Origin: Candidatus Moraniibacteriota bacterium
Lineage (GTDB): Bacteria; Patescibacteriota; Minisyncoccia; Moranbacterales; UBA1568
Length of the DNA: 64,000 nt
NCBI GenBank assembly: GCA_028711705.1
Contig: JAQTRS010000002.1
Location: 9,617 to 73,616, forward strand
Direction: 5' to 3'
Shown here: positions 4,304 through 55,165 of the stretch, one piece after another
How the letters are laid out: each line of letters starts with the position of its first letter
Numbering within the stretch: the stretch's first letter is position 1
Notes under the pieces: generated by a model
The model's input: the letters and a program-made list of their open reading frames with translations, nothing else
What the model was told of the DNA's origin: nothing
Database searches by the model: none
Position numbers and translations under genes: made by a program

Positions 4304-7132
4304 CTAGATATACTTCCCAGTGAAGCTCTTCTTGCATTTCTTAAGTCCTGATGGGATGCCTGCGTAGACGATTTCTCCCCCGCCCTCGCCGCCCTCGGGT
4401 CCAAGGTCAATCACCCAGTCGGCGTGCTTGATCACATCGGTATTGTGCTCGACCACAACAATCGTATTTCCCTTATCGGCCAGCGCGTCCAAAACGATCA
4501 AGAGTTTTCGCGTATCCTCAAAGTGCAAGCCGATAGTCGGCTCATCAAGAATATAGAGCGTCTTACCGGTCGATTTCCGAGCCAATTCCGTCGCCAGTTT
4601 CACTCGCTGCGCTTCACCTCCCGAAAGGGCCGTGGCGCTCTGGCCGAGAATCAGATAGCCTAATCCCACTTCATCCAGCGCCCGCAGTTTCTCTTGAATC
4701 AGCGCATGGTCGCAGAAAAAGCTGCGCGCCTCGGAAACGGTCATATTGAGCACCTGGGATATATTCATCCCCCGATACTCTATAGCCAGTGTCTTTGCAT
4801 TGTAGCGCGTCCCTTGGCACTCCTCGCAGTCGACATAGACATCGGCCAGAAGATACATCTCCACCTTGCGCACCCCGCCACCCTGACAGACCTCGCAGCG
4901 GCCGCCGCGCATATTGAAACTGAAGTGGCTGGCATCATAGCCATCGCGCTTCGCCTCGGCCGTCTCGGCGAACAGATCGCGAATCGGAGAAAAAACCCCG
5001 GTATAGGTCGCGGCATTGGAACGCGGCGTGCGGCCGATCGGCGATTGGTTCACCGTAATCACCTTGTCGATATGCTGCAATCCGGTGATAGTCTTGTGCG
5101 TACCCACCCGCGTCTTGGCCTGATAGAAGTGTCTGGCCAAACTCTTGGAGAGGATGTCCTTAATCAGGGACGACTTTCCCGATCCGGACACGCCCGACAC
5201 CACCACGAATGCCTCCAGCGGTATCTGCACATCGACGTTTTTGAGATTATGCTCGGTGGCCCCGATAATCGATATGAATTTCTTCGCCTTGCGCGGCTTC
5301 CTGTTTTCCGGAGACACACTGATTTTTCCGGACAGGTATTGGCCCGTCAAACTCTTGGACTGCCACAGTTTCTTGGGCGTTCCCGAAAAGATCACCTCTC
5401 CCCCCTCGCGGCCCGCGCCCGGTCCCATATCCACGATCCAATCCGAAGCGGCCATGAGTGCCGGCTCATGTTCCACCACCACCAATGAATTCCCGTTTTC
5501 CCGAAGCGATTGGAGCGCGTGCACGAGCTTTTCCGTGTCGCGGCTATGCAGTCCGACGGACGGTTCGTCCAACACATACAAGATTCCCGTCAGATCCGAC
5601 TTCATCTGGATCGCCAAGCGGATACGCTGCGCTTCCCCGCCCGAAAGCGTTTCCGCACTACGGAAAATTTCAAGATACCCCAGTCCCACTTTTTCCACAG
5701 CCAAAAGACGCATATCCATTTCCTTGAGCAGGGTCGTCATAGCGTTTTTCAAATCTTTGGAAACTGTTTTGACCAGCATCTCCGAAAGACGCTGACGGAA
5801 AGCAGTCACACTGAGCGCCGCCATATCGTGGATAGAGCAATCCTCGATCAGAACCGAAAGGGATTCCTGTTTCAATCGCTTGCCTTGGCACGACGGACAG
5901 GTCCGCACGAGCATATACTTCTCGATCTCTTTGCGCAGGTGTTCCGATTTCGTCTCCTTGTGCTTCTTCTCCAATAACGGAACGATGCCGACAAACATCG
6001 CCTTCTGCTCCGCGGGCGAAAGCTTTTCTTTGCTTTTCAAAACCGCTTCTTCCCCATACAAAAGAATCTTCAGATGCTTGGCCGAGAATTTCTTGATCGG
6101 CGTCTTCATCGAAAAACCGCAACGTTCGGCAGCATCACGCAGGACGCTGAGCTGTCCTGTCTGCACCTGGCGCCCTTCGCTCGTCTTATTCCACGGACGT
6201 ATCGCTCCTTCAAGCAAAGATAGATTCTTGTTCGGGATGATAAGCTCCGGATCGAGCTCGAGCTTCACGCCCAGCCCCGAGCACGTTTCGCACGCACCTT
6301 CCGGACTGTTGAACGAAAAGATATTCGGCGCCAGTTCCGGCAGATGAACATCGCAGGCATGACAAACATATTCCTGACTGTACCAGTATTCTTCTTTTTC
6401 ATTCACCAAGAGGGTGAGCGCGCCATGCCCCAATTTGAAGGCCGTCTCGATAGAATCGAGCAGTCGCTCCTTGTCTGGTTTTTTCGTATCCAAAGTCAGC
6501 CGATCCACCGCTATCTCCATTTCGGAAAGCAGCATATCCGACGCATGCGGCAGCGCTTCGGAAATGAGCATAATCTGGCCATGGAAACGCACGCGGGCAT
6601 AGCCCCACTGCTCCACCTGTTTAAGCGCCTCCTTTTCCGTCTTTTTGAGCGTCTGCGGAAGCTTGGCAAGGAAAATGAAGAAGGTATTGTCCGGAAAATC
6701 CAAAATTTCCGCCAGGATTTCCTGACTGGTCTTTCGATGCAGCATACTGTGGCACTGCGGGCAATGCGGCACACCGGTCTTGGCATACAAAACACGGAGG
6801 TAATCATACACTTCGGTCAGGGTTCCCACGGTCGAACGCGGCGAACGGGAAATACTTTTCTGATCGATGGCGATCGCCGGACTTAAGTGATACATCGCGT
6901 CCACGTCGGGCTTGCCCAAAGATTCCATGAAGTTCCTCGCGTACGAGGAGAGCGACTCCATGTACCGCCTGTTGGATTCGGCATAGATCGTGTCGAAAGC
7001 CAAGGAAGATTTTCCCGAACCGGAAAGGCCGGTGATAACCACGAGCGAATCACGCGGGATTTCGACATCGATATTCTTGAGATTGTTGACACGGGCGCCC
7101 TTGATGATGATGTTATTATTTTTCTTTGCCAT
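4304..7132 (-). CDS. uvrA: Excinuclease ABC subunit A (UvrA, canonical class I, 942 aa)
   Basis: An N-terminal [14 protein letters not shown] motif and tandem ABC ATPase modules with zinc-finger Cys clusters. The length matches E. coli UvrA. Confidence 0.9.
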
Positions 7133-10681: not shown

Positions 10682-10710
10682 TTGACATATACGCTACACT
10701 ATGCTATAAT
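10682..10710 (+). promoter_or_regulatory. Consensus sigma70-type promoter TTGACA-17-TATAAT with an extended-10 TG, upstream of the small lipopeptide ORF
   Basis: TTGACA at 10682-10687, TATAAT at 10705-10710, and TGc immediately before the -10. Confidence 0.55.
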
Positions 10711-10786
10711 CGACCGTTGCTTTGAATGATCAAACAACACTCAATACCACTGGCTTTTTAACAAAAATTCTCAAAGGAGAATCGTC

Positions 10787-10918
10787 ATGCAAGAAGACAC
10801 CCGGATCAATCTCGGCATACTGATTTCCGTTATGCTGTTAATAGTATTCATTGCGATAGCATGCAATAAAACGGACAAAACTGAGCAAATCGCTCCGTCA
10901 ACGCTTTCTATCCGATAG
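10787..10918 (+). CDS. Small (43 aa) lipoprotein-like peptide (MQEDTRINLGILISVMLLIVFIAIA|CNKTDKTEQIAPSTLSIR)
   Basis: SD AAAGGAG. The N terminus is hydrophobic and ends in the lipobox-like AIAC. Hand-translated; under 60 aa, so absent from the ORF track. Confidence 0.4.
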   Translation: MQEDTRINLGILISVMLLIVFIAIACNKTDKTEQIAPSTLSIR

Positions 10919-10920
10919 CA

Positions 10921-10949
10921 TCGACAAACGGCTTTTCTTATGCTATATT
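10921..10949 (+). promoter_or_regulatory. Near-consensus promoter TCGACA-17-TATATT (extended-10 TGcTATATT) upstream of the second small ORF
   Basis: Read directly. The -10 context ATGCTATAwT is shared with the promoter at 10682. Confidence 0.45.
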
Positions 10950-10989
10950 CGAAAGGCTAGTAACTTAAAAACTCTGGAGGAAAAGAAAC

Positions 10990-11154
10990 ATGACTTCCGA
11001 AAACGTTGAAAAATGGCTCGAGACTATCGCCGCAAGAGAGGAAACTCAGACCTCGCCGAAAGTGAGACCATCATCACCGCAAGCACTGGAAATCCTTGAT
11101 GGAGCCGATGATCTATATCATTGCCTCGCTGATCAAGATCCGATTGCTCAATAA
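10990..11154 (+). CDS. Small hypothetical protein (54 aa, MTSENVEKWLETIAAREETQ…)
   Basis: SD GGAGG 8 nt upstream. Its N terminus is paralogous to the next ORF (MT-x-E-x3-KW-x-E-x-I). Confidence 0.4.
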   Translation: MTSENVEKWLETIAAREETQTSPKVRPSSPQALEILDGADDLYHCLADQDPIAQ

Positions 11155-11166
11155 TAGGAGAAGAAT

Positions 11167-11343
11167 ATGACTCCCGAAGCACACCGCAAATGGCGGGAAG
11201 ACATTGAAAAAATTCCAATATCTGAGACTCGCGAGATTTTGCTTCGCCATCATAGGCGGATCATTCCGGTTCTCAAAGAACCGATTCGTTTTACAAGTCA
11301 TGCCGAGTTGACACAAACGCCAGAAAAAGAACATATGGACTGA
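11167..11343 (+). CDS. Small hypothetical protein (58 aa, MTPEAHRKWREDIEKIPISETRE…)
   Basis: SD AGGAGA. It is paralogous to the 10990-11154 ORF and is followed by a terminator. Confidence 0.4.
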   Translation: MTPEAHRKWREDIEKIPISETREILLRHHRRIIPVLKEPIRFTSHAELTQTPEKEHMD

Positions 11344-11370: not shown

Positions 11371-11408
11371 AAACAACGCCCGATAGCAATCCTGTCGGGC
11401 GGTTTTTT
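11371..11408. terminator. Rho-independent terminator (CGCCCGA-11nt-TCGGGCG then TTTTTT) that ends the small-ORF cluster. The uvrA2 stop lies at its T-tract edge
   Basis: A 7-bp GC-rich stem with a 6-T tract on the plus strand and A-rich sequence on the other side. Confidence 0.6.
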
Positions 11409-13956
11409 ATATACTCAGCACCCGTTTCAGGTATTCGCCGGTGTGTGAGCCTTTGGCATTAGCAACCTGTTCGGGCGTTCCCTTGGCGACCACTTTGCCG
11501 CCGCCTGATCCGCCTTCGGGTCCGATATCGATAAGATAGTCGGAACTTTTGATCACATCCATATTGTGCTCGATGAGAATCACCGAATTGCCCTTGTCCA
11601 CCAAACGCTGCAAAATCTCGATCAATTTTTTCACGTCCTCGTAGTGCAGGCCGATGGTCGGTTCATCCAAAAGATAAATCGTGCGCTGCAAATGCGGGCG
11701 ATAGAGTTCCGAAGATATCTTGATACGCTGCGCTTCCCCGCCCGAAAGCGTCGTGGCGGATTGACCAAGCTCCAGGTATTCCAAACCGACATCCCGAAGC
11801 GTCTTGAGCCGATCGGCGATGGCCGGGATATCCTTGAAGAATTCCGAGGCTTCCTCGACCGTCATCTTGAGCACATCGTAGATACTCTTTTTCTTATACT
11901 TCACCTCGAGCGTCTCCTTGGTGAAACGCTTGCCATCGCAAACATCGCACGGCACATAGACCGTCGGCAGAAAGTGCATCTCCACCGCGATCTCGCCATT
12001 CCCCTGACAGGTCTCGCAGCGCCCTCCCGGAACATTGAACGAGAATCGCCCAACCTTCCACCCGCGCACGCGAGCCTCGGCCGTCGAGGCATACAAATCG
12101 CGCACATGCGACCACATGCCGGTATAGGTTGCCGGATTGGAGCGTGGCGTGCGTCCGATCGGCGACTGATCGATCATCACGGCCCGGGTCAGGTATTCCG
12201 TCCCGCTCAGGCTCTTGCAATTGATGGCCTTATTATCTTTGTAGCGGCGATCGAAGCGCGCCTGCAGATTCTTGTGCACGATTTCATACAGAAATGACGA
12301 TTTCCCCGATCCGGACACGCCCGTCACGGTGATCAAACGCCCAAGCGGGATATCCACGTCCAAGTTCCGGATATTGAACACGCTGCCCCCGCGGACCTTG
12401 AGCGCGCCTTTTTCTTTGGTACGACGCACGGTCGGAACCTGGATTTTTTTCTCACCGCGAAGATACGAGAGCGTTACCGATCCCGATGCATTCGTCTTGG
12501 CCGTCAGCAATTGCTCCAGATCCCCCGACACCACGATATTGCCGCCATGCACGCCGGCCCCCGGTCCGATGTCGACCAGGTAGTCCGAGGCATAGATGGT
12601 GTCCTCGTCGTGCTCCACCACGATAATCGTGTTGCCCAGCTCGCGCAGACGTTTGAGAGTCGCAATAAGACGGTCATTGTCGCGCTGGTGCAGACCGATG
12701 GTCGGTTCATCCAATACATACAAGGCACCCACCAGCTGCGAACCGAGCTGCGACGCCAAACGGATGCGCTGCGCCTCCCCGCCCGAAAGGGTGTTGGCGC
12801 GCCGATCGAGCGAAAGGTAGTCCAAGCCGACATTCAACAGAAACTGCAGGCGGCTTTCGATTTCCTTCACCACCACGGCGGAAATTTTCTCCTCGCGCTC
12901 GGTCAATTCGAGCGTGGAAATGAACTCATAGGCGTCCCGGATGGTCGAGGCGGTATAGTCGATGATATTCTTGTCCCCCACCAAGACGAACAGAGCCTCC
13001 TCACGCAAACGGTGGCCATGGCAATCCTCGCAGACTTCCTCGCCGAAAAAGTGCTTGGTTCCCAAACCGTTGCATGTCGGGCAGGCGCCGTAGGGAGAAT
13101 TGAAACTGAACAGTCGCGGCTCCACCTCCGGATAGGAAAACCCATCATAGGGGCAGGAGAACTTCGACGACATCACGCGCTCTTCCCCGTCGAGGACGAT
13201 ACGGATCAACCCTTCGGTTTCCTCGAGCGCCTTGTCTATCGCCTCGTTCAATCGCTCCTGCGATCCGAACGCGTCGCTTTGAAATTCATCGAGCACGATC
13301 TCATCCACCAGCATATCGATATCATGCTTCTTGTTCTTGGACAGCACAACCTGATCGCGCAGGCTGCTCCGCACGCCGTCGATACGAGCCTCCACATATC
13401 CCTTGCTCAAGAAATCATACAGCATCTGATAATACTCCCCCTTGCGTCCGCGCACGATCGGCGCCCAGACTTGCAGCGTCGCAGGGACCTTGCTTTTCGC
13501 TTCGGGTTTTTCCTTGCGGTCGCTCACCATATCCACGATGAAATTCACCATCTCTTCGCTCGAGAGTTTCTTGATTTCCCGATTGCACACCAGACAATGC
13601 GGCCGCCCGATACGGGCATAGAGCACGCGCAAATAGTCATAGATTTCGGTGATGGTCGCCACCGTCGAGCGCGGATTGGACGAGCGGGATTTCTGGTCGA
13701 TGGAAATCGCAGGCGACAGCCCGGCAATCTCGTCCACATCCGGCTTCTGGAACTGATGCAGAAATTGCCGCGCATAGGTCGAGAGTGATTCCACGTAGCG
13801 GCGCTGCCCCTCGGCGAAAATGGTATCGAACGCCAAAGAGGACTTGCCCGACCCAGACAAACCCGTAAACACGATCATCTTGTTGCGAGGCATTTCGACC
13901 GTGATATTCTTGAGATTGTGCGTCCGAGCGCCCCGGACGATGATCGTATCCTGCAT
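11407..13956 (-). CDS. Second UvrA-family ABC ATPase (849 aa), about 93 aa shorter than the neighbouring UvrA. Candidate class II / UvrA2-like paralogue
   Basis: The N terminus [28 protein letters not shown] and tandem ABC modules resemble UvrA. The shorter length suggests the UvrB-binding/insertion domains are reduced. Confidence 0.8.
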   Translation of the reverse strand: MQDTIIVRGARTHNLKNITVEMPRNKMIVFTGLSGSGKSSLAFDTIFAEGQRRYVESLSTYARQFLHQFQKPDVDEIAGLSPAISIDQKSRSSNPRSTVATITEIYDYLRVLYARIGRPHCLVCNREIKKLSSEEMVNFIVDMVSDRKEKPEAKSKVPATLQVWAPIVRGRKGEYYQMLYDFLSKGYVEARIDGVRSSLRDQVVLSKNKKHDIDMLVDEIVLDEFQSDAFGSQERLNEAIDKALEETEGLIRIVLDGEERVMSSKFSCPYDGFSYPEVEPRLFSFNSPYGACPTCNGLGTKHFFGEEVCEDCHGHRLREEALFVLVGDKNIIDYTASTIRDAYEFISTLELTEREEKISAVVVKEIESRLQFLLNVGLDYLSLDRRANTLSGGEAQRIRLASQLGSQLVGALYVLDEPTIGLHQRDNDRLIATLKRLRELGNTIIVVEHDEDTIYASDYLVDIGPGAGVHGGNIVVSGDLEQLLTAKTNASGSVTLSYLRGEKKIQVPTVRRTKEKGALKVRGGSVFNIRNLDVDIPLGRLITVTGVSGSGKSSFLYEIVHKNLQARFDRRYKDNKAINCKSLSGTEYLTRAVMIDQSPIGRTPRSNPATYTGMWSHVRDLYASTAEARVRGWKVGRFSFNVPGGRCETCQGNGEIAVEMHFLPTVYVPCDVCDGKRFTKETLEVKYKKKSIYDVLKMTVEEASEFFKDIPAIADRLKTLRDVGLEYLELGQSATTLSGGEAQRIKISSELYRPHLQRTIYLLDEPTIGLHYEDVKKLIEILQRLVDKGNSVILIEHNMDVIKSSDYLIDIGPEGGSGGGKVVAKGTPEQVANAKGSHTGEYLKRVLSI

Positions 13957-45692: not shown

Positions 45693-48600
45693 TCACATAA
45701 GCTCGAATTTCTCTTTCAGGATGATGATTTCGTCGCGCAAAATGGCGGCTGTCTCGAAATCCAGCTCCTTCACGGCGAGTTTCATCTGCTTTTCCTTGAG
45801 CTTGATCAGCTTCTCTGGATTCTTCACAAACACCTGCTCGTCGATCAGGATATTCGCCGACACCGCCTTCTGATGCTCGCTCTCGAAGGCCTCGGTGATA
45901 TCGTGGATTTTCTTGCTGATGGTCTGAGGGGTGATGCCATGCGCCTCATTATACGCGATCTGGATGGCACGCCGACGATCGGTCTCGCTTATCGCACGCT
46001 CCAAAGACCCGGTCATCGTGTCCGCATAGACATTGACCCGGCCGAAAACATTGCGCGCCGCCCGCCCGATGATCTGGATGAGCGACGTTTCCGATCGCAA
46101 AAATCCCTCCTTATCCGCATCCAAGATGCCGATGAAAGTCACCTCCGGCAGATCCAATCCTTCCCGCAACAGATTCACGCCCACCAAGCAATCGAATTCC
46201 CCTTTGCGGAACGACGTGAGTATCCTGATGCGGTCTATCGTTTTGACATCGCTGTGCAGATATTCCGCCTTGACTTTCTGTTCTTTCAAATACGTCGTCA
46301 GATCCTCGGCCATTTTTTTGGTCAAAGTCGTCGCCAGCACCCGCCCGCCTTTTTGTATATCCTTCTTCGCCTCGCCGATAAAATGCCAGATCTGCCCGGG
46401 ATAGTTCCCTGCTTCACGCACGGGCCTCACCGTCACTTCCGGATCGATCAGTCCCGTCGGCCGGATGACCTGCTGCACGACCTGCTCGCTCACCTCGCGC
46501 TCATAGACGCTCGGCGTCGCGGACACATAGATCGTCTGACCGACCCGCTGCTCGAATTCCTCATAACGCATCGGGCGATTATCCAAGGCGCTCGGCAGAC
46601 GGAAACCGAAATCGATCAGCGTTCCCTTGCGGGCCTGATCGCCCGCATACATCGCGCGCAACTGCGGCAGCGTCACGTGCGATTCATCGATCAGTGTCAA
46701 AAAATCCGGCGCGCCATCCGCTTTTTTCGGGAAGTATTCAAGCAGGCTGTCCGGCGCCTCCCCGGGTTTCTTGCCCGAAAAATGCCTCGAGTAATTCTCG
46801 ATACCGCTGCAATAGCCGATTTCCTCTATCATCGCCAGATCATACTGCGTCCGCCGCTTCAGGCGATCCGCTTCCAAAAGCTTTCCCTGTTTATTGAGTT
46901 CCGCAAGCTGCTCCTCCAATTCCGCGCGTATCGTCTGCAGCGCACGTAGTTGCTGTTCCTTGTCCGACACGAAGTGCTTGGCCGGAAACAGGAACATCGA
47001 ATCCATCTCGCCTGTAATCTTCTGCGATACCGGATCGATACCGGTGATGGAGCGCACCTCGCCACCCGAGATATCCAACGAATACATCACGCGCTCCTGC
47101 ACCGGCATGATGTCCACCCGATTGCCCAGGCTGCGAAAAGTTCCAGGCGTCAAATCCGCATTAGTGCGCTCGAAGAAAATCCCGATCAAGCGGCGCAAAA
47201 ATTCCGGACGCAAAATCCGGTCGCCCTTCTTCAGGATAACATGCTCCTTCTGATACTCCTCCGGGCTTCCCAAACCGTAGATGCACGACACCGATGCCAC
47301 GATAATCACATCGCGACGCGTTAGCAGCGACTGGGTCGAGGCATGGCGCAACCGGTCGATCTCCTCGTTGATCTGTGCATCCTTTTCGATATACGTATCC
47401 GTGATGGGCATATATGCCTCTGGTTGATAGTAGTCATAATAGGAGACGAAATAGTGGACGGCATTATCGGGAAAAAATTCCTGAAACTCCTGCGCGAGCT
47501 GGGCCGCCAAGGTCTTGTTATGCGCTATAACGAGGGTCGGCTGTTGGATATTTTGTATGACCTGAGCCATAGTGAAGGTATTGTGAACGAATATCCCTCC
47601 GAACCCAGCTAAAAAAGTTTCATTCTGATCGATTGAAAAATCATACACATATTTTTCGCCTGAAATCATTTCTATTTTTTCGATAGGCGTCCAATATGAG
47701 TTCAAAAGATACGCCTGTTTTTCGATAGCGGAAACATCTGCTAAACCGATTTTTTTCGCTGCTTTAAATAAAGTTTTTATGATTCCCTCGAAACAATTTC
47801 TGGAAGGCAGCCTTTTGCCACTCTCAATCAAACCCATATGAGATCGTCCAGAAATAAAATCTTTCTGCCATAGGCCTAGTTTCTGCCTTATATCCTTAAT
47901 CTGCTTCCCATCGATAGGGATAAGATTGACATTCGTGTTACCAAAAGGTGCTATCGTCGCCCTCAAAGAGTCATTTTTTCTTGTAATTGAAAAACCTATA
48001 TTTTCCTGAAAAATCTCCAGATATTCTTTCCCAGAGATAAAGACTTTCCAGCAATCGGTTCGGTTATCCTGATTCGGAATCTTAACACTCCTTTTTTTCA
48101 TCCTTGCCACAATTCCAAAACGCGACAGGGCATAGAGAAGATCCGATGCCAATCCCTTGCTTACCGTTACACAGGTGATAGCGCCGCTATCGATCCCGCC
48201 ATCTCCCGAGAAATACGCCTTCAAAATATGCCTGAGATGGTTATTCGATAACTGCGCCCAGAACGAAGGAAGCCGCTTCATTCGGGAGGTGTTACCGCAC
48301 CAATATTTAAGCCACTCCGTCCATACCGTAGAAGAGACCTGGTAGTCATACGTTCCCGGACGTAAACGATACCGCAACCCAAGATGGACGCAAATGGAAG
48401 AAAAGTCATCAACAGCCTCTCGATCTCCGGATGAGAACATAAAAAAACCGTCCGCTCCATGTCCTTCGGCTATATAGTAACCGATAAGCCTCATCAATTC
48501 CTCGGTAACCGGAATTTCAAGCGTATGTTCATATCCCCGGCTTACCACCCCAAAAACAGCCTGTTGAGAGAGCATCGGGACTGCTGTAATAATTTTTTTA

Positions 48601-49346
48601 TACAGCGAAAAAGACACTCTCTCTTGATCATGCAGAATCCGATAGGCTTTTTGATATGGCAAAATCGACTGCAATAGCTCTTTATGCTCCGCCCAAGCAG
48701 AGGCAAAATTCGGCATACGAACAAACAATTTCAAACCAACATCCGCAACATCATCCGCTAAAGATATCGACTGTAACGTTTTTCTCGGTTCATCCAAACT
48801 CAATGGGACAGGTAAAAAATCGCCCACTCGTAATTCATCGGTTGAACAAAGAACTGTTTTCCCTTTGCGCACCACATAAAAATTGTGATCCTGAGTCACT
48901 GTTACTTCCCTTCCACAGCTTGTCCTTATGACAGAAAGCTCTTTGGGTGACGCATGTCGTGTGAATTGATTTATAGGCTTCCATGAAACCATTTTTGTCT
49001 GAGAATCGATACTATATGCCTCATACTCTCGGTATCGCGAAGGTAAATCATTCACTTCAAGCAACTCCGTATCATCAATATTTTTTATTTTTCCCGGAAA
49101 GATACTCAGGAGTTCGTCTATAAGACTTCCTATACTTACACATGACACCTTGCCATTCCTTCTTATCAACACAGGCGTGGCACCAGTTACACTTTTCCCT
49201 GTACCCGTGGCTCCCAAGAGGGTCTGTTTTTTCATGCCGCCCCGAATACCCGAAACCAGCGCTTCGATCGCCTGCGGTTGGTCCCCTGCTGGCTGATACG
49301 AACTTCTGAGAGTGAAAGGGTTGCTGCGGGGTGTTGACATTTCCAT
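45693..49346 (-). CDS. uvrB: Excinuclease ABC subunit B (UvrB) precursor interrupted by an intein (extein about 679 aa, intein 538 aa)
   Basis: Extein: …LLGATGTGK | … | [28 protein letters not shown]…, with UvrB helicase motifs and the C-terminal UvrB/UvrC interaction helix. The intein starts with Ser and ends in …FVHN before Thr. Confidence 0.85.
   Translation of the reverse strand: [1217 protein letters not shown]
47580..49193 (-). mobile_element. Intein (S52…N589 of the precursor) with an embedded LAGLIDADG homing-endonuclease domain, inserted in the UvrB Walker-A P-loop
   Basis: Block A [18 protein letters not shown]-like motifs [11 protein letters not shown] and [11 protein letters not shown]. 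Block G FVHN then T. Boundaries were verified codon by codon on the DNA. Confidence 0.8.
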
Positions 49347-49463
49347 ATATACACGATACTATGATTCTTCCATTGAGCATAGCAGAAATCTGCCTTCGTT
49401 TCAAGGAAACACCTCTCTCTGAAAGATATCCTCCCACCTTCACAATTTACACAGGAGCAACAC

Positions 49464-49850
49464 ATGGACCTTCCCGACATAGACCTTCCCGTAAACCTAC
49501 CGAAAGACTACCGCGAGAAACATGATCAGCTGGTCAAACAAATTGTCACGCTGCTCCAAGGAAAGGATCGCGTCGTCTTTGAAATATTTTCCATCAATCA
49601 AGACGCTCCTATAGGCTGGCTCAGGATCGATATTCCCGATGAGCAGCCCGATACAAGGGAAAATGCTCCATCGACACGCTTTGGTGCAATTACGGTTCGC
49701 AGCACGACCATAGCATGGCAAAGTACCGGTCTATCCTGGCTGATACCGATCGATAATACCGGCGAAATATCTGAAAATGACAGTGCTCACACCATCGTCC
49801 TCACTCATGGAGATGTAGTGATAAAGATCACCGTCCCCAAACAAGGCTGA
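49464..49850 (+). CDS. Hypothetical protein (128 aa)
   Basis: ORF with a downstream terminator; no motif recognised. Confidence 0.4.
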   Translation: MDLPDIDLPVNLPKDYREKHDQLVKQIVTLLQGKDRVVFEIFSINQDAPIGWLRIDIPDEQPDTRENAPSTRFGAITVRSTTIAWQSTGLSWLIPIDNTGEISENDSAHTIVLTHGDVVIKITVPKQG

Positions 49851-49884
49851 CGGCAATACTCGCTCCTCAAAAACGCCACCTCTA

Positions 49885-49921
49885 CCCCTCACATGCAATA
49901 CTTCGTGAGGGGATTTTTTTA
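49885..49921 (+). terminator. Rho-independent terminator (CCCCTCAC-12nt-GTGAGGGG-ATTTTTTT)
   Basis: Read directly. Confidence 0.6.
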
Positions 49922-50009
49922 CCCGAAACATCTCTTGTTTCTTTCCACTCTTTTTGTCGTAGTGTGCTTCATTAGAGCCTTGATTCCTCTCTTGTGTACC
50001 GAGAATCAT

Positions 50010-50052
50010 TGACAAATCGCAAAAAACGGAGTATAATCGAGCTAATTCTTGG
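50010..50052 (+). promoter_or_regulatory. Promoter TTGACA-17-TATAAT with a conserved downstream box CGAGCTAATTCTT; duplicated at 52234
   Basis: Read directly; GGAGTATAATCGAGCTAATTCTT versus GGAGTATACTCGAGCTAATCTTA. Confidence 0.5.
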
Positions 50053-50122
50053 GATGGAGCATTCCTTCATCGATAAGAGATAGTTCACTCACAAATACAT
50101 CTACTATAAAAGGAGGGATGTC

Positions 50123-50596
50123 ATGAAAAATCCACTGCATAACAACAAAGGGCATTCGTCCGAACATGAGAATATAGACAGCAGACTCTATCCCGGCATA
50201 GTTGCGCACGAGATAGCAGCCTGCCTTGCTCATAACAACGACTGCACGGAAGATATCAAAGCGTGGCGAGATACGGCCGACAGAATCAGATGGGAACGCT
50301 TAAAACAACTCCATCCCGGACTCATTCGGGCCATCGTGATAAAAGTGTACGACCATAAACATGGTCATATCTTTATCCAAGCAATGCTGGATTGCAATGT
50401 ACTGCACCACAGTGATATAGAGATGATCTCTATAGACTGCACATACATTCATCCGACGCTCGTGGAACTTCTGGTATCGAAGGTTCTCGAGATCGGAAAT
50501 CAATTCCAGCATCCGAAAGAAATGGTTGATGAAGTTGTTACAAATCTCAGAGCACCAAGGGAACAATTCCACCCAATGGAAGCCGAACCCATTTAA
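50123..50596 (+). CDS. Hypothetical His/Cys-rich protein (157 aa)
   Basis: A strong SD AAGGAGGGA; no motif recognised. Confidence 0.45.
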   Translation: MKNPLHNNKGHSSEHENIDSRLYPGIVAHEIAACLAHNNDCTEDIKAWRDTADRIRWERLKQLHPGLIRAIVIKVYDHKHGHIFIQAMLDCNVLHHSDIEMISIDCTYIHPTLVELLVSKVLEIGNQFQHPKEMVDEVVTNLRAPREQFHPMEAEPI

Positions 50597-50635
50597 AAAA
50601 ATCAGCGTGTATCGGCGATAACCGTCGCCGCATTA

Positions 50636-50680
50636 AAACCTGCGAAAGCATTCACTGCTTAGCAGGTTTTTAATTTTTCA
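50636..50680 (+). terminator. Stem-loop AACCTGC…GCAGGTT followed by TTTTTAATTTTT
   Basis: Read directly. It is followed by an extended-10 promoter (TGGTATAAT, 50700-50708) for the PP2C gene. Confidence 0.45.
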
Positions 50681-50777
50681 AAAACGTTTTCCGAACTGTG
50701 GTATAATGGCGCATATAGAGCTTTCATGCGCGCATCAATTTCATATCCGATGTAATCTCCTTTAAGCACACGCCTCT

Positions 50778-52196
50778 ATGCGAACACATTCCATGCTGGA
50801 GCACGCCTTCGAGCCCCAAAGCACCCTTCCTCCGAAGGAGACGAAGGAGGCCCTGACTGAAAAAGCCGAAAAAGAGCCCTCGGATATACTCACCTTGCGC
50901 AAGCGCGTCATCCGGGCGGCGGACAAGCTTCAATATATCGCCCGCATCCTGCGCGTTTACGAAACAAAGGAACAGCAGCAAGTGGCGCAGAAACGATCGG
51001 ACCTCAACTCCCGATTGATCGGTGCCTATATACACAGGAACTCCGTGCTCTACAATGAGGCCCTTTTCAAAACGGTCGACGCGGACAAGGAACTGCAAAA
51101 TATCATCGCTTTCGAACAAGAGATTGACGCACTGGAACAAGAGACGCTTCAGGTCGATGATACCATTGATGCGCGGCAAGACGAACTCCGCAGGCAGCAC
51201 CCGGAAGGCATGTTAGCTTCCGAATCGCGACTATTCGATACGCCGGCATTCGAGCACGACCCTGCTTTTGTCGGCATAAGCTCGTTTGCAAGCGAAGATC
51301 ACCCGAAGCTCAACGAGGATAGGATCGCGCAGATCGGCCCCGATGCCTATGTCGTCTTGGACGGTATGGGCGGACATGAAGGCGGAGATATCGCCGCGGC
51401 GGCCGCACTCAAGGTTGTTCATCGTACGATTCACAGGGAACTTTTCACAAAATCGTCCCCGACACTGGAAGAGGTCGAGCATGCCATACGAAACGCCATC
51501 GCAAGCGCGGACGCATGGATAATCGCCTACAATACATCGCGCATCGAAACGCAAAAACAAGAAGCGGCACAGCATGGCGAAATCCTTTCCGAAGAAGCGA
51601 TCCAAAAAATGCGTATCGGGACGACCGTCGTGCTTTCGATCATCCACACCGCGGAAAACGGAACGAAAACCCTTGTCACCGGAAGCGTCGGCGATAGCAT
51701 GGTCGCCCTCTACGCAAACGGAAGACTCGACTGCCTCACCCTCGAAGACGGTCAGCTGCTCAAATTGGCCGACGGCGATCGGGATGTGGCACGAAAACTC
51801 CAGAGTCTCTTGGCCGATTCCGAAAACGTGGCGGATTTCACACAGAGATTACATCAGGCAGGACTTTCTTTTGATGACGAAATGATCCAAACGGTCTTCT
51901 CAAACAGCAGTATGGTCAATCAGATGCTCGGACACGGCCGTAGCGAAGATGGTCGCGTCATGCCAGATATCATAACCAAGCGGCTTCAAGGAAATGAATC
52001 GCTACTTCTATGTACGGACGGCGTGCACGGTACGGGCGAAAAACTGCGTACCTCCGAAATGGAGCATATCCTTGCAGAACATGAGACTCCTCAGGAACAG
52101 AGCGATGCGCTCTGTCAGAGGGCCCGCGCGATACAAGACGGTGACCGAGGCAAAACCGATGATGCGAGCGCGCTGCTGGTAAAACTATCCGCATAA
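50778..52196 (+). CDS. PP2C-family Ser/Thr protein phosphatase with an N-terminal coiled-coil region of about 190 aa
   Basis: PP2C motifs NEDR, VLDGMGGHEGG and CTDGV…. Confidence 0.75.
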   Translation: MRTHSMLEHAFEPQSTLPPKETKEALTEKAEKEPSDILTLRKRVIRAADKLQYIARILRVYETKEQQQVAQKRSDLNSRLIGAYIHRNSVLYNEALFKTVDADKELQNIIAFEQEIDALEQETLQVDDTIDARQDELRRQHPEGMLASESRLFDTPAFEHDPAFVGISSFASEDHPKLNEDRIAQIGPDAYVVLDGMGGHEGGDIAAAAALKVVHRTIHRELFTKSSPTLEEVEHAIRNAIASADAWIIAYNTSRIETQKQEAAQHGEILSEEAIQKMRIGTTVVLSIIHTAENGTKTLVTGSVGDSMVALYANGRLDCLTLEDGQLLKLADGDRDVARKLQSLLADSENVADFTQRLHQAGLSFDDEMIQTVFSNSSMVNQMLGHGRSEDGRVMPDIITKRLQGNESLLLCTDGVHGTGEKLRTSEMEHILAEHETPQEQSDALCQRARAIQDGDRGKTDDASALLVKLSA

Positions 52197-52233
52197 CTGA
52201 TTTCGGCTCCACAAAGCTCTTGACAAAACCCTC

Positions 52234-52274
52234 TTGACAATGTCTGCCAAAGGAGTATACTCGAGCTAATCTTA
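52234..52274 (+). promoter_or_regulatory. Promoter TTGACA-16-TATACT with the conserved CGAGCTAATCTTA box (a paralogue of the 50010 promoter)
   Basis: Read directly; a second TTGACA lies 12 nt upstream. Confidence 0.5.
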
Positions 52275-52350
52275 AAGATGGTGTAAATATTTCGCCATCT
52301 CCAGGGGATAAGATACCCTTAACAAACACACAGCTTACAGGAGATGTGTC

Positions 52351-53208
52351 ATGACAACAATACAAGGGTCTTCAGTCGCCTTAGAAAAAAGTACTGAAAA
52401 CCGTAGCGAGTTTCTGGAACAGCTGAAACTCTCCCTACAATTAAAAAACGATGTGATCGAAGCCGTAAGTATTCTGTTGCATATCGACGAATTGACAGAA
52501 GAAAGCTGGCAAGAAGTCATCGACCATTTCGGTTGGAAAGATAAGGCGCAGGAACATATCCTGCTCATACACCTGATCGAGATGGTACAGAGCCACAAGA
52601 ACGGGGCCCTGCTGGTCGACAAGATCTTGTCTTTGGATAGCTTCTATTACGAGCATTTCAAAGAAGTGCTCAAGAAACTTTCAGGTGCCAATCTTGGTGT
52701 CATCGATAAGTTGGTCAAAAAAATACGGCATATCGGGGCCGCGTATAATGATGCGAAATGGGAGCCGTTGGCAACCGAATTCATCGCTATCGCAACAGGC
52801 ATGCTGAGTAAAAGCAATGATCTGTCTTACTGGTACGCGGTGGCCGATACGACCGATTTCAGATCTCTGGATTATGGATTCGTTCGAGATATCGCGTTTT
52901 TCGCAAGTAACCATAACTATGGTTATATCTTATTGGAAAAGCTTGTTTCGATCAAAATCCTGCATCTTAAGGACTTGATCGTCATAGCCAAGGCAATCAA
53001 AACGTCGGCTCATCCCATGGAAATTTCGTTCAAAATAGCGATATGGGAAGCAGTGAGGTTCTGCGGACGTAGAGATGGACACGCTCTTATCAACGAGGTC
53101 TATCCTCCAGTGTGCTATCCTAGTGTAAATTCTCATGAGTCATATCATAGACTCATAGCCATCGATCAGCCGAAATTTTCCACACCGACATGGACGCTGA
53201 TCGCATAG
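52351..53208 (+). CDS. Hypothetical alpha-helical protein (285 aa)
   Basis: SD AGGAG; no motif recognised. Confidence 0.45.
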   Translation: MTTIQGSSVALEKSTENRSEFLEQLKLSLQLKNDVIEAVSILLHIDELTEESWQEVIDHFGWKDKAQEHILLIHLIEMVQSHKNGALLVDKILSLDSFYYEHFKEVLKKLSGANLGVIDKLVKKIRHIGAAYNDAKWEPLATEFIAIATGMLSKSNDLSYWYAVADTTDFRSLDYGFVRDIAFFASNHNYGYILLEKLVSIKILHLKDLIVIAKAIKTSAHPMEISFKIAIWEAVRFCGRRDGHALINEVYPPVCYPSVNSHESYHRLIAIDQPKFSTPTWTLIA

Positions 53209-53347
53209 TCTTATCAAAGCGCTTTGCAAACCATGCAAAGCCCATACAGTAAAAACCCTCCCGCGCGCACAAGGCTGTGTCAGGGAGGGTTCTTTTTTTG
53301 TCCTTCTTAGGGTACAATAAGGTATAAACCCTTGTGATACCACCCGT

Positions 53348-54517
53348 ATGCGCATATCCTACTCCTCGCTCGAGACCTATCGCAACTGCCCGCTTAAATA
53401 CCGGTACAAGGAAATAGACAAGCTCAAAGAACCAAAATCCAAAGAGGCTGTCTTCGGGACGCTGGTGCACAGTACGATGAAATTCATCTACGACCCGGCC
53501 CTGATCCCGCCCACTATCGAGCAGGCTCTCGATCATTTTTCGCGCGGATGGAATAGCGAGATCTGGGAAAACGAACTCGAGGAACGTGCCGCCTTCTCAC
53601 AGGGTATCGAGATGATACAGAAATACTACCGTTCCAATGACCCTCGCGAAGCTACCATCGTCGCACTCGAAAGCAATTTCTCGCTCGAGATTTCCGATCC
53701 CCTGCACCCGAGAGAAACGCACACCATCCGCGGCATCATCGACCGCATCGACAAGACCGAGGACGGCTATGAAATTATCGATTACAAAACTTCCAAAAAA
53801 ATGCCGTCGCAGGATTTCGTCGATAATAACCTGCAGCTCTCCATCTATCTTAAGGCCTTCCTTACCCGTTATCCCAAGGAAGTGGAGAATATAGCCAATA
53901 TCACCGTAAGCCTGTATTTCCTCAAACACGGGGTCAAGCTTTCCTCCACACGCACGCTCGAGGACCTGCAGGAAGTGGACAATCTGTTCCTTGAAGTCAT
54001 CGGCCTCATCGAAGCCGGGGAGTTTGACGCGCATGTCTCACCACTATGCGATTGGTGCGGTTTTCAGAAAGTCTGTCCGATGTGGAAGCACAAGTTCAAG
54101 GAAGAACGCAAGATCGATTCCACCGAAATCAATCGGGCCATCGAGGACTATATCGCCACTAAACGCGAGTTGACGCTGCAAAAGCTGCGTGTCATGAAGC
54201 TCCAGGAAACCATCATGAACTATATGGACCAAGAGGATGTGGAGCGCGTCTTCGGCGGCGATGGCATCGTCGAACGAGCCAAACGCATTTCCTACAAATA
54301 TGATCCGGAGAAAATCCGCTCTTTCCTTGAGCCGATGGAAAAATGGGAAAGCGTCCTGAAGCTCGACCCGACCGCGCTCAAAAGGACGCTCGCCTCTTTC
54401 CCGAAGGACATGCAAAAAGAAATAGACTCGGCCTCGAAGATTATCGATAAGGAAAGCACGAGTCTTAAGGTAAAAAAAGGCGGCATGAGCACAGAGGAAG
54501 ATGGCGGGCTGGAATAA
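53348..54517 (+). CDS. PD-(D/E)XK-superfamily nuclease (RecB/Cas4-like nuclease domain with a C-terminal Cys cluster)
   Basis: The N-terminal motif SYSSLETYRNCPLKYRY, the D…IDYKTSK core, and C-terminal CDWCGFQKVCP. Confidence 0.65.
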   Translation: MRISYSSLETYRNCPLKYRYKEIDKLKEPKSKEAVFGTLVHSTMKFIYDPALIPPTIEQALDHFSRGWNSEIWENELEERAAFSQGIEMIQKYYRSNDPREATIVALESNFSLEISDPLHPRETHTIRGIIDRIDKTEDGYEIIDYKTSKKMPSQDFVDNNLQLSIYLKAFLTRYPKEVENIANITVSLYFLKHGVKLSSTRTLEDLQEVDNLFLEVIGLIEAGEFDAHVSPLCDWCGFQKVCPMWKHKFKEERKIDSTEINRAIEDYIATKRELTLQKLRVMKLQETIMNYMDQEDVERVFGGDGIVERAKRISYKYDPEKIRSFLEPMEKWESVLKLDPTALKRTLASFPKDMQKEIDSASKIIDKESTSLKVKKGGMSTEEDGGLE

Positions 54518-54523
54518 TACGGC

Positions 54524-55165
54524 CTACTCCCTCTCCTGTTTCTTTTTCCGCACCAGCCAATAGATGAGGCCGACGGAAACGATCACGAATACCGCGCCGA
54601 TCCAAAAGTGAGCATTGTGTATTTTGCGCACAAAAAAACCGACGGCCCGCATCCCGCCATAGCCGACATAGAGATAGATGAGGTTTTTCACGATAGTACC
54701 CAAAAACGTCGCGCTGATGAAGGTTCTCATATTGAGGCGGATAATGCCGCAGACGATCGAAACGGAAACGCTCGGGAAAATCGGGATGGATCGCAAAACG
54801 AAAAGCGCGACCTCATCTCCCCATCCCCCATTGAATCGCTTGCCGAGATTCTCCACATCCTTGTGATTGATACCGACGAATTTTCCGAATCTGACTACGA
54901 CGATATCTTCGAACTTATCGCCCAAAACATAGAACACCCAAGAAGCGATCGTCTTGCCGATCGCGCCGACGATGGCGATCCACAACAAAAACAGCCAGGT
55001 GTGATGCTGCGTCAAAGACAGGGATCCGGCCGTCGTCATGATGAGCGGCGCTGGGATGGGAGGGATGATTTCCTCCAGAAAAGAACCCAAAAATGCGAAA
55101 ACATCCAGCGGCAACGCATTGGCGGAAGTCTTGACGATCGCTTCGATTTGACGGAATGAATACAT
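54524..55165 (-). CDS. DedA/SNARE-associated (TVP38/TMEM64) family membrane protein
   Basis: The hydrophobicity pattern and the conserved G-rich motif region. Start chosen at MYSFRQ. Confidence 0.6.
   Translation of the reverse strand: MYSFRQIEAIVKTSANALPLDVFAFLGSFLEEIIPPIPAPLIMTTAGSLSLTQHHTWLFLLWIAIVGAIGKTIASWVFYVLGDKFEDIVVVRFGKFVGINHKDVENLGKRFNGGWGDEVALFVLRSIPIFPSVSVSIVCGIIRLNMRTFISATFLGTIVKNLIYLYVGYGGMRAVGFFVRKIHNAHFWIGAVFVIVSVGLIYWLVRKKKQERE

Follow-up and report, generated by a model that had tools for sequence, protein, structure and literature searches.

Organization of the locus

The DNA analysed here, referred to below as the window, is a stretch of 64,000 nucleotides (nt) from contig JAQTRS010000002.1 of a Candidatus Moranbacteria metagenome-assembled genome (MAG). 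This study deals with a block of genes at 49464-54517 in which two hypothetical genes, coding for proteins of 157 and 285 amino acids (aa; locus tags PHT88_01905 and PHT88_01915), are each preceded by a promoter and a downstream segment that closely resemble each other. Our results suggest that these promoters are two copies of a family-specific expression or regulatory leader, inherited by paralogues at a variable locus, a reading to which we assign a probability of about 0.62. The features of the block are listed below, together with the scores of R1, a covariance model of the leader that was built from 15 copies (RBS, ribosome-binding site; HP1 and HP2, predicted stem-loops; I19 and I21, inverted repeats).

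49464-49850 (+): hypothetical gene, 128 aa; different promoter, no family leader, no Pfam match
50009-50128 (+): leader cassette, copy 1; R1 87.8 bits, E 8e-14
50009-50014 and 50032-50037 (+): promoter P1 of copy 1, from a promoter scan; -35 TTGACA, 17-nt spacer, -10 TATAAT
50038-50046 and 50053-50071 (+): box CGAGCTAAT and HP1 of copy 1
50110-50116 (+): RBS AAGGAGG of copy 1, inside hairpin ACATC/GATGT (50097-50121), followed by ATG at 50123
50123-50596 (+): short-form family gene (157 aa) with a single helical-repeat domain; belongs to the 14-member family and is paralogous to the 285-aa protein
50635-50682 (+): putative intrinsic terminator after the short-form gene; inverted repeat I19 (AAAACCTGCGAA/TTAGCAGGTTTT), then a T-run
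50699-50707 (+): extended -10 TGgTATAAT of the PP2C gene, read in the sequence
50778-52196 (+): PP2C phosphatase gene, 472 aa; PP2C_2 match
52234-52356 (+): leader cassette, copy 2; R1 92 bits, E 1.4e-14
52234-52239 and 52256-52261 (+): promoter P2 of copy 2, from a promoter scan; -35 TTGACA, 16-nt spacer, -10 TATACT
52262-52270, 52276-52300 and 52303-52320 (+): box, HP1 and HP2 of copy 2
52339-52343 (+): RBS AGGAG of copy 2, inside hairpin ACACA/TGTGT (52326-52349), followed by ATG at 52351
52351-53208 (+): long-form family gene, 285 aa, two tandem domains; from alignment to the 157-aa protein
53251-53300 (+): long hairpin and T-run, read as an intrinsic terminator; inverted repeat I21, clade-conserved
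53348-54517 (+): PD-(D/E)XK nuclease gene, Cas4/AddB-like, 389 aa, four Cys; PDDEXK_1 131.7 bits

The gene calls of the preliminary description of this DNA (a His/Cys-rich 157-aa protein, a PP2C phosphatase, a 285-aa protein and a nuclease) hold, with 14 His and 4 Cys counted in the 157-aa protein.

Two copies of one leader in the window

P1 and P2 were the top two promoter matches in the region. The first had been placed at 50010 in the preliminary description; a TTGACA-17-TATAAT promoter is indeed present, but it begins at 50009. The near-identical promoter reported at 52234 (TTGACA-16-TATACT) was found with hexamers and spacer as described. Directly 3' of both -10 hexamers lies the 9-nt box CGAGCTAAT, which has no other exact copy in the window. 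A conserved box of 13 nt had been recognized at this place: a shared box does exist, but the block common to both promoters is really 33 nt long (50025-50057 versus 52249-52281, 79% identity). Likewise, the similarity extends beyond the box, covering the whole promoter and some 80 nt of a predicted structured 5' untranslated region (UTR).

A 19-nt core, GGAGTATAMTCGAGCTAAT, matched twice in the window at up to three mismatches, against 0.02 matches expected, and the two copies agreed at 18 of the 19 core positions, their 9-nt boxes being identical. The 9-mer box alone was not enriched in the 64 kb at up to one mismatch (12 matches, 14.8 expected), and CGA directly 3' of the -10 also occurred in several other promoters of the window.

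Distribution of the cassette

The same cassette of about 120 nt was found upstream of family genes in L002, L006, L010, L011, L012, L014, L017 and L019 (seven other source contig sets; L numbers designate fetched loci). It is composed, in this order, of TTGACA, an A-rich 17-nt spacer ending in GG(A/G)N, TATAnT, the box, a stem-loop, AACAAAyACACA, AAGGAGG, GUGUC and AUG. The box consensus across copies is YGARCTAAT, and the sequence of stem-loop HP1 varies from copy to copy. The version present in the window, CGAGCTAAT, represents the family consensus; L014 has it as well, and L006 and L010 have it with a single change.

R1 was run over 158 kb (the window and its relatives) and over 1.36 Mb of nuclease surroundings from 80 other Moranbacteria species. 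It retrieved its 15 training copies only from the former (59-101 bits, next best 26 bits) and gave zero matches in the latter. Every copy (15/15) precedes a family gene, in the same orientation and at a fixed distance, as judged from hidden Markov model (HMM) searches that covered all open reading frames (ORFs) of all fetched loci; the HMM detected no family genes in the 80 other Moranbacteria loci. The exact pattern of the hairpin around the RBS matched five contigs among 241 million metagenome records, three of them known family loci, and no viral contigs. The box therefore did not arise as a repeat by chance, is not a feature of promoters in general and extends beyond this genome.

These results bear on two points of the preliminary description. 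It had considered that the box might turn up at unrelated promoters; in the DNA scanned, all 15 leader copies lie upstream of family genes and none elsewhere. It had also proposed the box as a shared regulatory region through which both hypothetical genes would be co-regulated: the box is real and family-specific, and co-regulation appears plausible.

A family of divergent, predicted helical proteins

Two segments of the 285-aa protein, residues 37-136 and residues 134-213, aligned with the 157-aa protein (E ~5e-7 and 23-24% identity in each case). Judged from this alignment, the two proteins are paralogues, the domain of the 157-aa protein being present twice in the 285-aa one; the long form is thus best described, at the sequence level, as a tandem duplication of the domain held once by the short form.

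A profile of three domain copies retrieved 14 proteins among 1.84 billion cluster representatives, and the HMM searches of the fetched loci added further members. Family members fall into two size classes, one of 147-159 aa with one domain and the other of 259-291 aa with two. Word-index homology searches returned self-matches alone with the 285-aa and 157-aa queries, and three members only with the 14-member profile; comparison of family members with Pfam, NCBIfam, PHROGs and PADLOC gave nothing beyond noise. AlphaFold2 predicted all-helical folds for the 157-aa protein (eight helices, mean predicted local distance difference test (pLDDT) score of 81) and for the 285-aa protein (pLDDT 74.5), with predicted template-modelling (pTM) scores of 0.71 and 0.70, respectively; both models are reasonably confident. 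No significant match of either form was obtained with Foldseek against the PDB (best E 0.05-0.17, template-modelling (TM) scores 0.2-0.48).

Both forms resemble alpha-solenoid repeat proteins (ARM, HEAT, TPR, PUF) in being predicted all-helical with repeated helix pairs or triplets, and their top structural neighbours were designed helical repeats, TPR, importin-alpha and PUF-8. They differ from them in lacking a significant fold match (best E 0.05) and a Pfam repeat match. Assignment of the domain to the PUF repeats was considered (PUM-HD E 0.2 with one profile, A4; TM 0.32 to PUF-8) and rejected, since it was not reproduced with a larger profile. As modelled, the family is an undescribed alpha-solenoid-like domain; the proteins make up a new family of very restricted occurrence, found in one Moranbacteria clade, whose type of fold is a common one. 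A literature search for Moranbacteria promoters together with hypothetical proteins found no paper.

The 128-aa protein was rejected as a family member, having no similarity to the family. Its tie to the family runs only via a 249-aa fusion protein of L002 (8963-9712), in which residues 6-116 match the window protein (27% identity, E 2e-8) and residues 135-244 match the family HMM (E 1e-19) and are 52% identical to a free-standing 151-aa protein of L010. This fusion would tie the 128-aa gene loosely to the family module.

The predicted leader RNA

RNAalifold predicted no leader structure on a plain MAFFT alignment, in which HP1 was out of register, and a covariance model was therefore built instead. 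Across the 15 copies, seven of the eight HP1 pairs changed on both sides, pair counts that are inflated by the fitting of the HP1 alignment to the structure. Over the whole structure, 77% of cells were paired, versus 66% in shuffles (0/500 reached the observed value) and 30-54% with slid partners; the covariation score was 0.32, versus at most 0.20 in all controls. The leader also folded better than shuffled sequence (mean z -1.9 and -1.6). At the RBS, the mean unpaired probability was 0.42 (range 0.04-0.81), the AUG was mostly open and no alternative state was identified. A CCU stretch paired with part of the RBS in individual folds, and these models point to partial masking of the RBS.

From its position upstream of homologues and its compensatory changes, the leader appears to belong to the structured cis-regulatory 5' leaders in the generic sense. 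Rfam 15 covariance models gave no match at gathering score over the window, and none at E <= 1 over 49800-54600. Two known kinds of leader come close to it. It is similar to RBS-masking 5' UTR leaders (RNA thermometers, translational operators) by its RBS hairpin just before the start codon, its CCU able to pair and the conservation of the element upstream of a set of related genes, but differs from them by the lack of an Rfam match, a masking that is partial (~0.42) and a promoter conserved along with the RNA. It is also similar to Gram-positive 5' mRNA stabilizers (STAB-SD type, blocking RNase J1), with a stem-loop near the predicted 5' end and a near-perfect AAGGAGG; here HP1 lies about 10 nt from the predicted start instead of at the very 5' end, and the resemblance is functional, not one of homology. 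In Bacillus subtilis, strong RBSs and structured 5' UTRs or initiating ribosomes govern mRNA decay by RNase J1 and RNase Y, and the leader-stabilizer mechanism is documented for B. subtilis hbs (PMC5737220). The family relative in L006 lies near an RNase J gene. Taken as a whole, the element adds a new case to a known kind, that of structured 5' leaders tied to a gene family and conserved together with their promoter.

A variable slot in a conserved backbone

Six syntenic relatives (L002, L010, L012, L014, L017 and their duplicates) share a backbone composed of uvrB (minus strand), one to three family paralogues, the PDDEXK nuclease, a VTT membrane protein (minus strand), a cyclophilin and an EngB-like GTPase. 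The window has this same backbone, and the relatives display it without PP2C. How many paralogues are present, and of which subtype, depends on the genome; the short form alone has at least three subtypes. This variation in the gene content of the slot agrees with the earlier view of an accessory block rather than core metabolism, and the locus, as far as gene content can tell, is accessory and variable rather than core.

Conservation is very uneven along this locus. Relative to the window proteins, identities within the clade reached 86-92% for UvrB, 88-92% for the nuclease, 78-86% for EngB, 67-80% for the VTT protein and 62-75% for the cyclophilin, versus 32-38% for the short form and 27-33% for the long form. 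At the DNA level, identity of the leaders was 0.68, for a shuffled baseline of 0.58 (37-73% in the model alignment), and that of the family coding regions was at shuffle level (0.61 versus 0.60). Either constraint on the family is relaxed or diversifying selection acts on it.

Short-form leaders carry AATTTC/AATTCT and long-form leaders AATCTG/AATCTT, each type sharing its signatures with the equivalent leaders of other genomes, which dates the duplication to before these genomes separated. Its old age also follows from these shared signatures together with a box similarity that is no greater within than between genomes (p = 0.42). The cassette appears to have been kept by selection and not by recent conversion.

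Transcription units

Hairpins followed by a T-run occur after the 128-aa, 157-aa and 285-aa genes. They were called as terminators by eye, two of them being repeats I19 and I21, and a terminator scan of the region listed none of the three. The gene set of the locus varies among relatives, and a five-gene operon is not what the block looks like: given terminator-like hairpins after three genes and promoter-like sequence before each gene, the genes are mostly separate transcription units.

The terminator upstream of the nuclease gene is kept with compensatory changes in L002, L010, L012, L014, L017 and L019. The 53251-53300 hairpin contains an inner CACAAGGCTGTG hairpin, like the leader's ACACA..AGGA..UGUGU, and is followed at 53311-53329 by two tandem -10-like boxes (TACAAT and TATAAA); hairpin and boxes alike are clade-conserved, with compensatory changes. 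Neither the inner motif nor the terminator hairpin was found upstream of 79 other Moranbacteria nucleases. The inner CACACAAGGATGTGTC was considered as a relic of a leader hairpin and rejected, a simpler explanation being that it forms the tip of a long terminator stem whose compensatory changes are of the ordinary kind.

The nuclease

The nuclease matched PF12705 (PDDEXK_1) at 131.7 bits over profile positions 1-247 of 247, with IIDRID and EIIDYK motifs and four Cys. By these features it is an ordinary member of the PD-(D/E)XK superfamily with a four-Cys pattern of the Cas4/AddB type. It is similar to the Cas4/AddB iron-sulfur nucleases in its full-length PDDEXK_1 match, its DYK and QxxxY motifs, C14 and CxxCx5C, but differs from them in its Cas4 score (TIGR00372, 36.4 bits, under the cut-off of 65), a C-terminal extension of ~140 aa and its stand-alone, widespread occurrence in Moranbacteria. 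Its neighbours are the family gene, the VTT protein and the cyclophilin, and no cas genes were seen among its annotated neighbours.

Relatives of this nuclease numbered 134 among species-representative genomes, and the best 80 (52-65% identical) were examined with 10 kb of surroundings. The family gene, the leader, VTT and cyclophilin were all absent within that distance; in five of the 80, tblastn gave only a uvrB-like segment, short and weak, some 9 kb upstream. The two genes are on different contigs in MAG ELA120, where the nuclease is in L020 and the family gene (L007) has ispG on one side and a class-I tRNA synthetase gene on the other. The window nuclease has no leader of its own but a promoter-like sequence after the terminator. 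Its adjacency to the family genes probably reflects a gene order inherited within one clade, the nuclease itself probably not being part of the family module, and a functional link between the two is rather improbable.

PADLOC-DB 2.0 gave no match for the 128-aa, 157-aa and PP2C proteins, marginal matches for the 285-aa protein (E 0.002-0.009) and sub-threshold Cas4-like matches for the nuclease.

The PP2C phosphatase

The 472-aa protein matched PF13672 (PP2C_2) over residues 179-425 (33.9 bits for a cut-off of 24), and the metal-binding Asp motifs of PP2C were recognized by inspection (NEDR, LDGMGGHEGG, CTDGV, TDDAS). On this basis it is a PP2C (PPM) phosphatase and an ordinary member of the superfamily. 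It is similar to the Stp1/PrpC type in its PP2C_2 match above the Pfam cut-off and its Asp motifs, but differs in scoring 70.7 versus 230 bits for the Stp1/IreP equivalog NF033484 and in having a helical N-terminal extension of ~175 aa. No partner kinase was evident among its annotated neighbours. The extended -10 promoter attributed to this gene was recovered (TGgTATAAT, 50699-50707). The start of the gene is ambiguous: the longest ORF begins at 50778, the public call on an identical Logan contig gives 467 aa from MLEHAF (50793), and a clear RBS is found at neither.

A tblastn search with the window PP2C as query gave no homologues in any of the fetched loci, among them the six syntenic relatives and the 80 other Moranbacteria nuclease loci, and a metagenome scan found no close relatives. 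The linkage of PP2C to the hypothetical genes that had been proposed is not supported by these searches, and the gene is best read, on present genome comparisons, as a lineage-specific insertion or relocation between two paralogues. Horizontal acquisition was considered and received no support from composition, guanine-plus-cytosine content (0.54, third position 0.61) matching the backbone. There is no terminator between the PP2C gene and P2, and therefore read-through into the long-form gene may occur. At the junction of PP2C and leader copy 2, CTCTTGACAA is present twice, 14 nt apart (52217-52226 and 52231-52240), providing two candidate -35 hexamers; this repeat may be the footprint of the rearrangement that placed PP2C there.

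Other observations in the window

The window UvrB (45693-49346, minus strand) is 1217 aa long and contains an intein of ~500 aa with a LAGLIDADG homing-endonuclease domain (residues ~85-581), which is absent from UvrB of L002, L012, L014 and L017 (675-702 aa). The divergent promoter region between uvrB and the 128-aa gene is conserved in DNA (window 49334-49410, L002 8830-8915, L017 about 6200-6290). In it, palindrome GCAGAAATCTGC (49382-49393) lies inside the spacer of the minus-strand uvrB promoter TTGAAA-17-TATGCT, and its L017 counterpart, GCGGAAATCCGC, displays a symmetric compensatory change. The palindrome could serve as a repressor operator of uvrB, or else give the 128-aa gene a hairpin in its 5' UTR.

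Elsewhere, three small plus-strand ORFs (a 43-aa peptide with a hydrophobic stretch, 54 aa and 58 aa) occupy 10682-11343 beside uvrA (11407-13956, minus strand); consensus promoters are located at 10682 and 10921. In the small-peptide gene (10787), the start region AACAAA..AAGGAG..GTCATG weakly resembles the family leader (R1 match of 24.5 bits).

A scenario for the leader and its genes

The favoured reading, that of a leader inherited by paralogues, would involve an ancestral gene with a ~110-aa helical-repeat domain that was copied along with its promoter and 5' UTR. This duplication would have led to the one-domain short form (157 aa) and the two-domain long form (285 aa); the proteins would then have diverged almost beyond recognition and the cassette would have been kept by selection. 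A strong sigma-70-type consensus promoter, TTGACA-17-TATAnT, would transcribe each paralogue separately, and the conserved region after the -10 (consensus YGARCTAAT) would probably include the transcription start. Some 10 nt downstream of the predicted transcript start, and 6-7 nt past the box, HP1 would begin; next would come the A/C-rich AACAAAyACACA and, immediately 5' of the AUG, a hairpin with AAGGAGG flanked by its ACACA and UGUGU arms. Common control might act on the box, or on the leader RNA via mRNA stability and partial RBS masking, and under one such control on all paralogues expression would thus be coordinated. The slot between uvrB and the Cas4-like nuclease would be the variable part, with one to three paralogues, PP2C having presumably been inserted between them in this genome, outside the conserved unit.

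Several observations weigh against this reading. The box differs among copies (CGAACTAAT, CGAATCAAT, TGAATAAAT, AGCCTCAGT), and no within-genome co-variation of boxes pointing to a matching regulator was seen (p = 0.42), so that co-evolution of the box with such a regulator was rejected as not significant. The RBS hairpin is kept mainly as sequence, with nearly invariant arms and little covariation, and is of moderate stability (-2 to -9 kcal/mol); it could be a primary-sequence translation signal and not a switch. Promoter activity, transcription start and RNA structures are model predictions, and the HP1 pair counts are inflated by the alignment procedure mentioned above. The leader search in this genome spanned the 64 kb, and copies on unrelated genes may exist elsewhere. 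Finally, seven genomes have a family gene immediately 5' of the nuclease gene; L019 is among them, although a PMT glycosyltransferase gene takes the place of uvrB there, and a functional tie to the nuclease thus keeps some probability.

Alternative explanations

This last arrangement also speaks for the module of the preliminary description, in which the hypothetical genes, PP2C and the PD-(D/E)XK nuclease would form one accessory stress or defence unit co-regulated by the box. The five genes do lie on one strand in a compact block, the adjacency to the nuclease persists in L019 with its different upstream neighbour, the content of the slot varies as in accessory islands and the nuclease has Cas4-like similarity. 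Against it, PP2C is absent from every relative examined, neither PP2C nor the nuclease has the box or leader, and a terminator separates the long-form gene from the nuclease. Moreover, the nuclease is usually located elsewhere, its best 80 of 134 relatives having no family gene within 10 kb and ELA120 having the two genes on different contigs; it is slow-evolving (88-92% identical in the clade), unlike typical arms-race components, and no PADLOC system emerged beyond marginal matches. Such a unit is unlikely. A different role for the surroundings, with the leader and the downstream terminator as homology anchors for swapping coding cassettes at a hypervariable locus, would fit flanks that are ~90% identical around family proteins of ~30%, paralogue numbers and subtypes that vary per genome, and conserved non-coding blocks on both sides; diversifying selection would then act on host-interaction or immunity-like proteins. 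Yet conservation is focused on promoter hexamers, paired stems and RBS, which suits expression signals better than plain homology arms, and leaders of 37-73% identity are low for efficient homologous recombination. We regard this exchange as doubtful.

Two further explanations would deprive the similarity of meaning, and both are very improbable. A generic strong promoter and translation start, or a dispersed intergenic repeat without specific gene link, could account for CGA after the -10 of several other window promoters and for the similar start region of the small-peptide gene at 10787 (R1 24.5 bits). It would not account for the full box and 19-nt core found twice in 64 kb for 0.02 expected, for the absence of more R1 copies in 158 kb and 1.36 Mb or for the fixed position of 15/15 copies, in the same orientation, upstream of a family gene; nor did the DNA show inverted repeats at the flanks or target duplications, as mobile repeats typically do. 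Recent segmental duplication or gene conversion in this genome, with nothing functional implied, would explain why the window copies share an identical 9-nt box and 18/19 core positions. But their coding regions are only 23-24% identical, short- and long-form leader signatures are common across genomes, CGAGCTAAT is the family consensus and found in other genomes too, and boxes are no more similar within genomes than between them (p = 0.42).

A more far-reaching version of the leader hypothesis can also be formulated. The cassette might represent a new class of cis-regulatory RNA and operator in candidate-phyla-radiation bacteria, controlling hypervariable helical-repeat proteins that might serve an episymbiont in host interaction or in an immunity-like role; these proteins might even bind the leader RNA in a PUF-like manner and autoregulate the paralogue set. 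This is speculative and, in our opinion, improbable.

Significance

The description of this cassette replaces an attractive but unsupported annotation as a defence and signalling module. Candidate-phyla-radiation bacteria have hardly been explored for regulatory elements or for genes specific to a lineage, and the present analysis yields a candidate regulatory RNA together with a promoter motif for Moranbacteria. The non-coding cassette is recognizable while the proteins it would drive are ~30% identical and the surrounding genes ~90%, so that R1 provides a marker for members of a protein family barely detectable by sequence search. The analysis also delimits a variable locus, whose proteins may be subject to diversifying selection.

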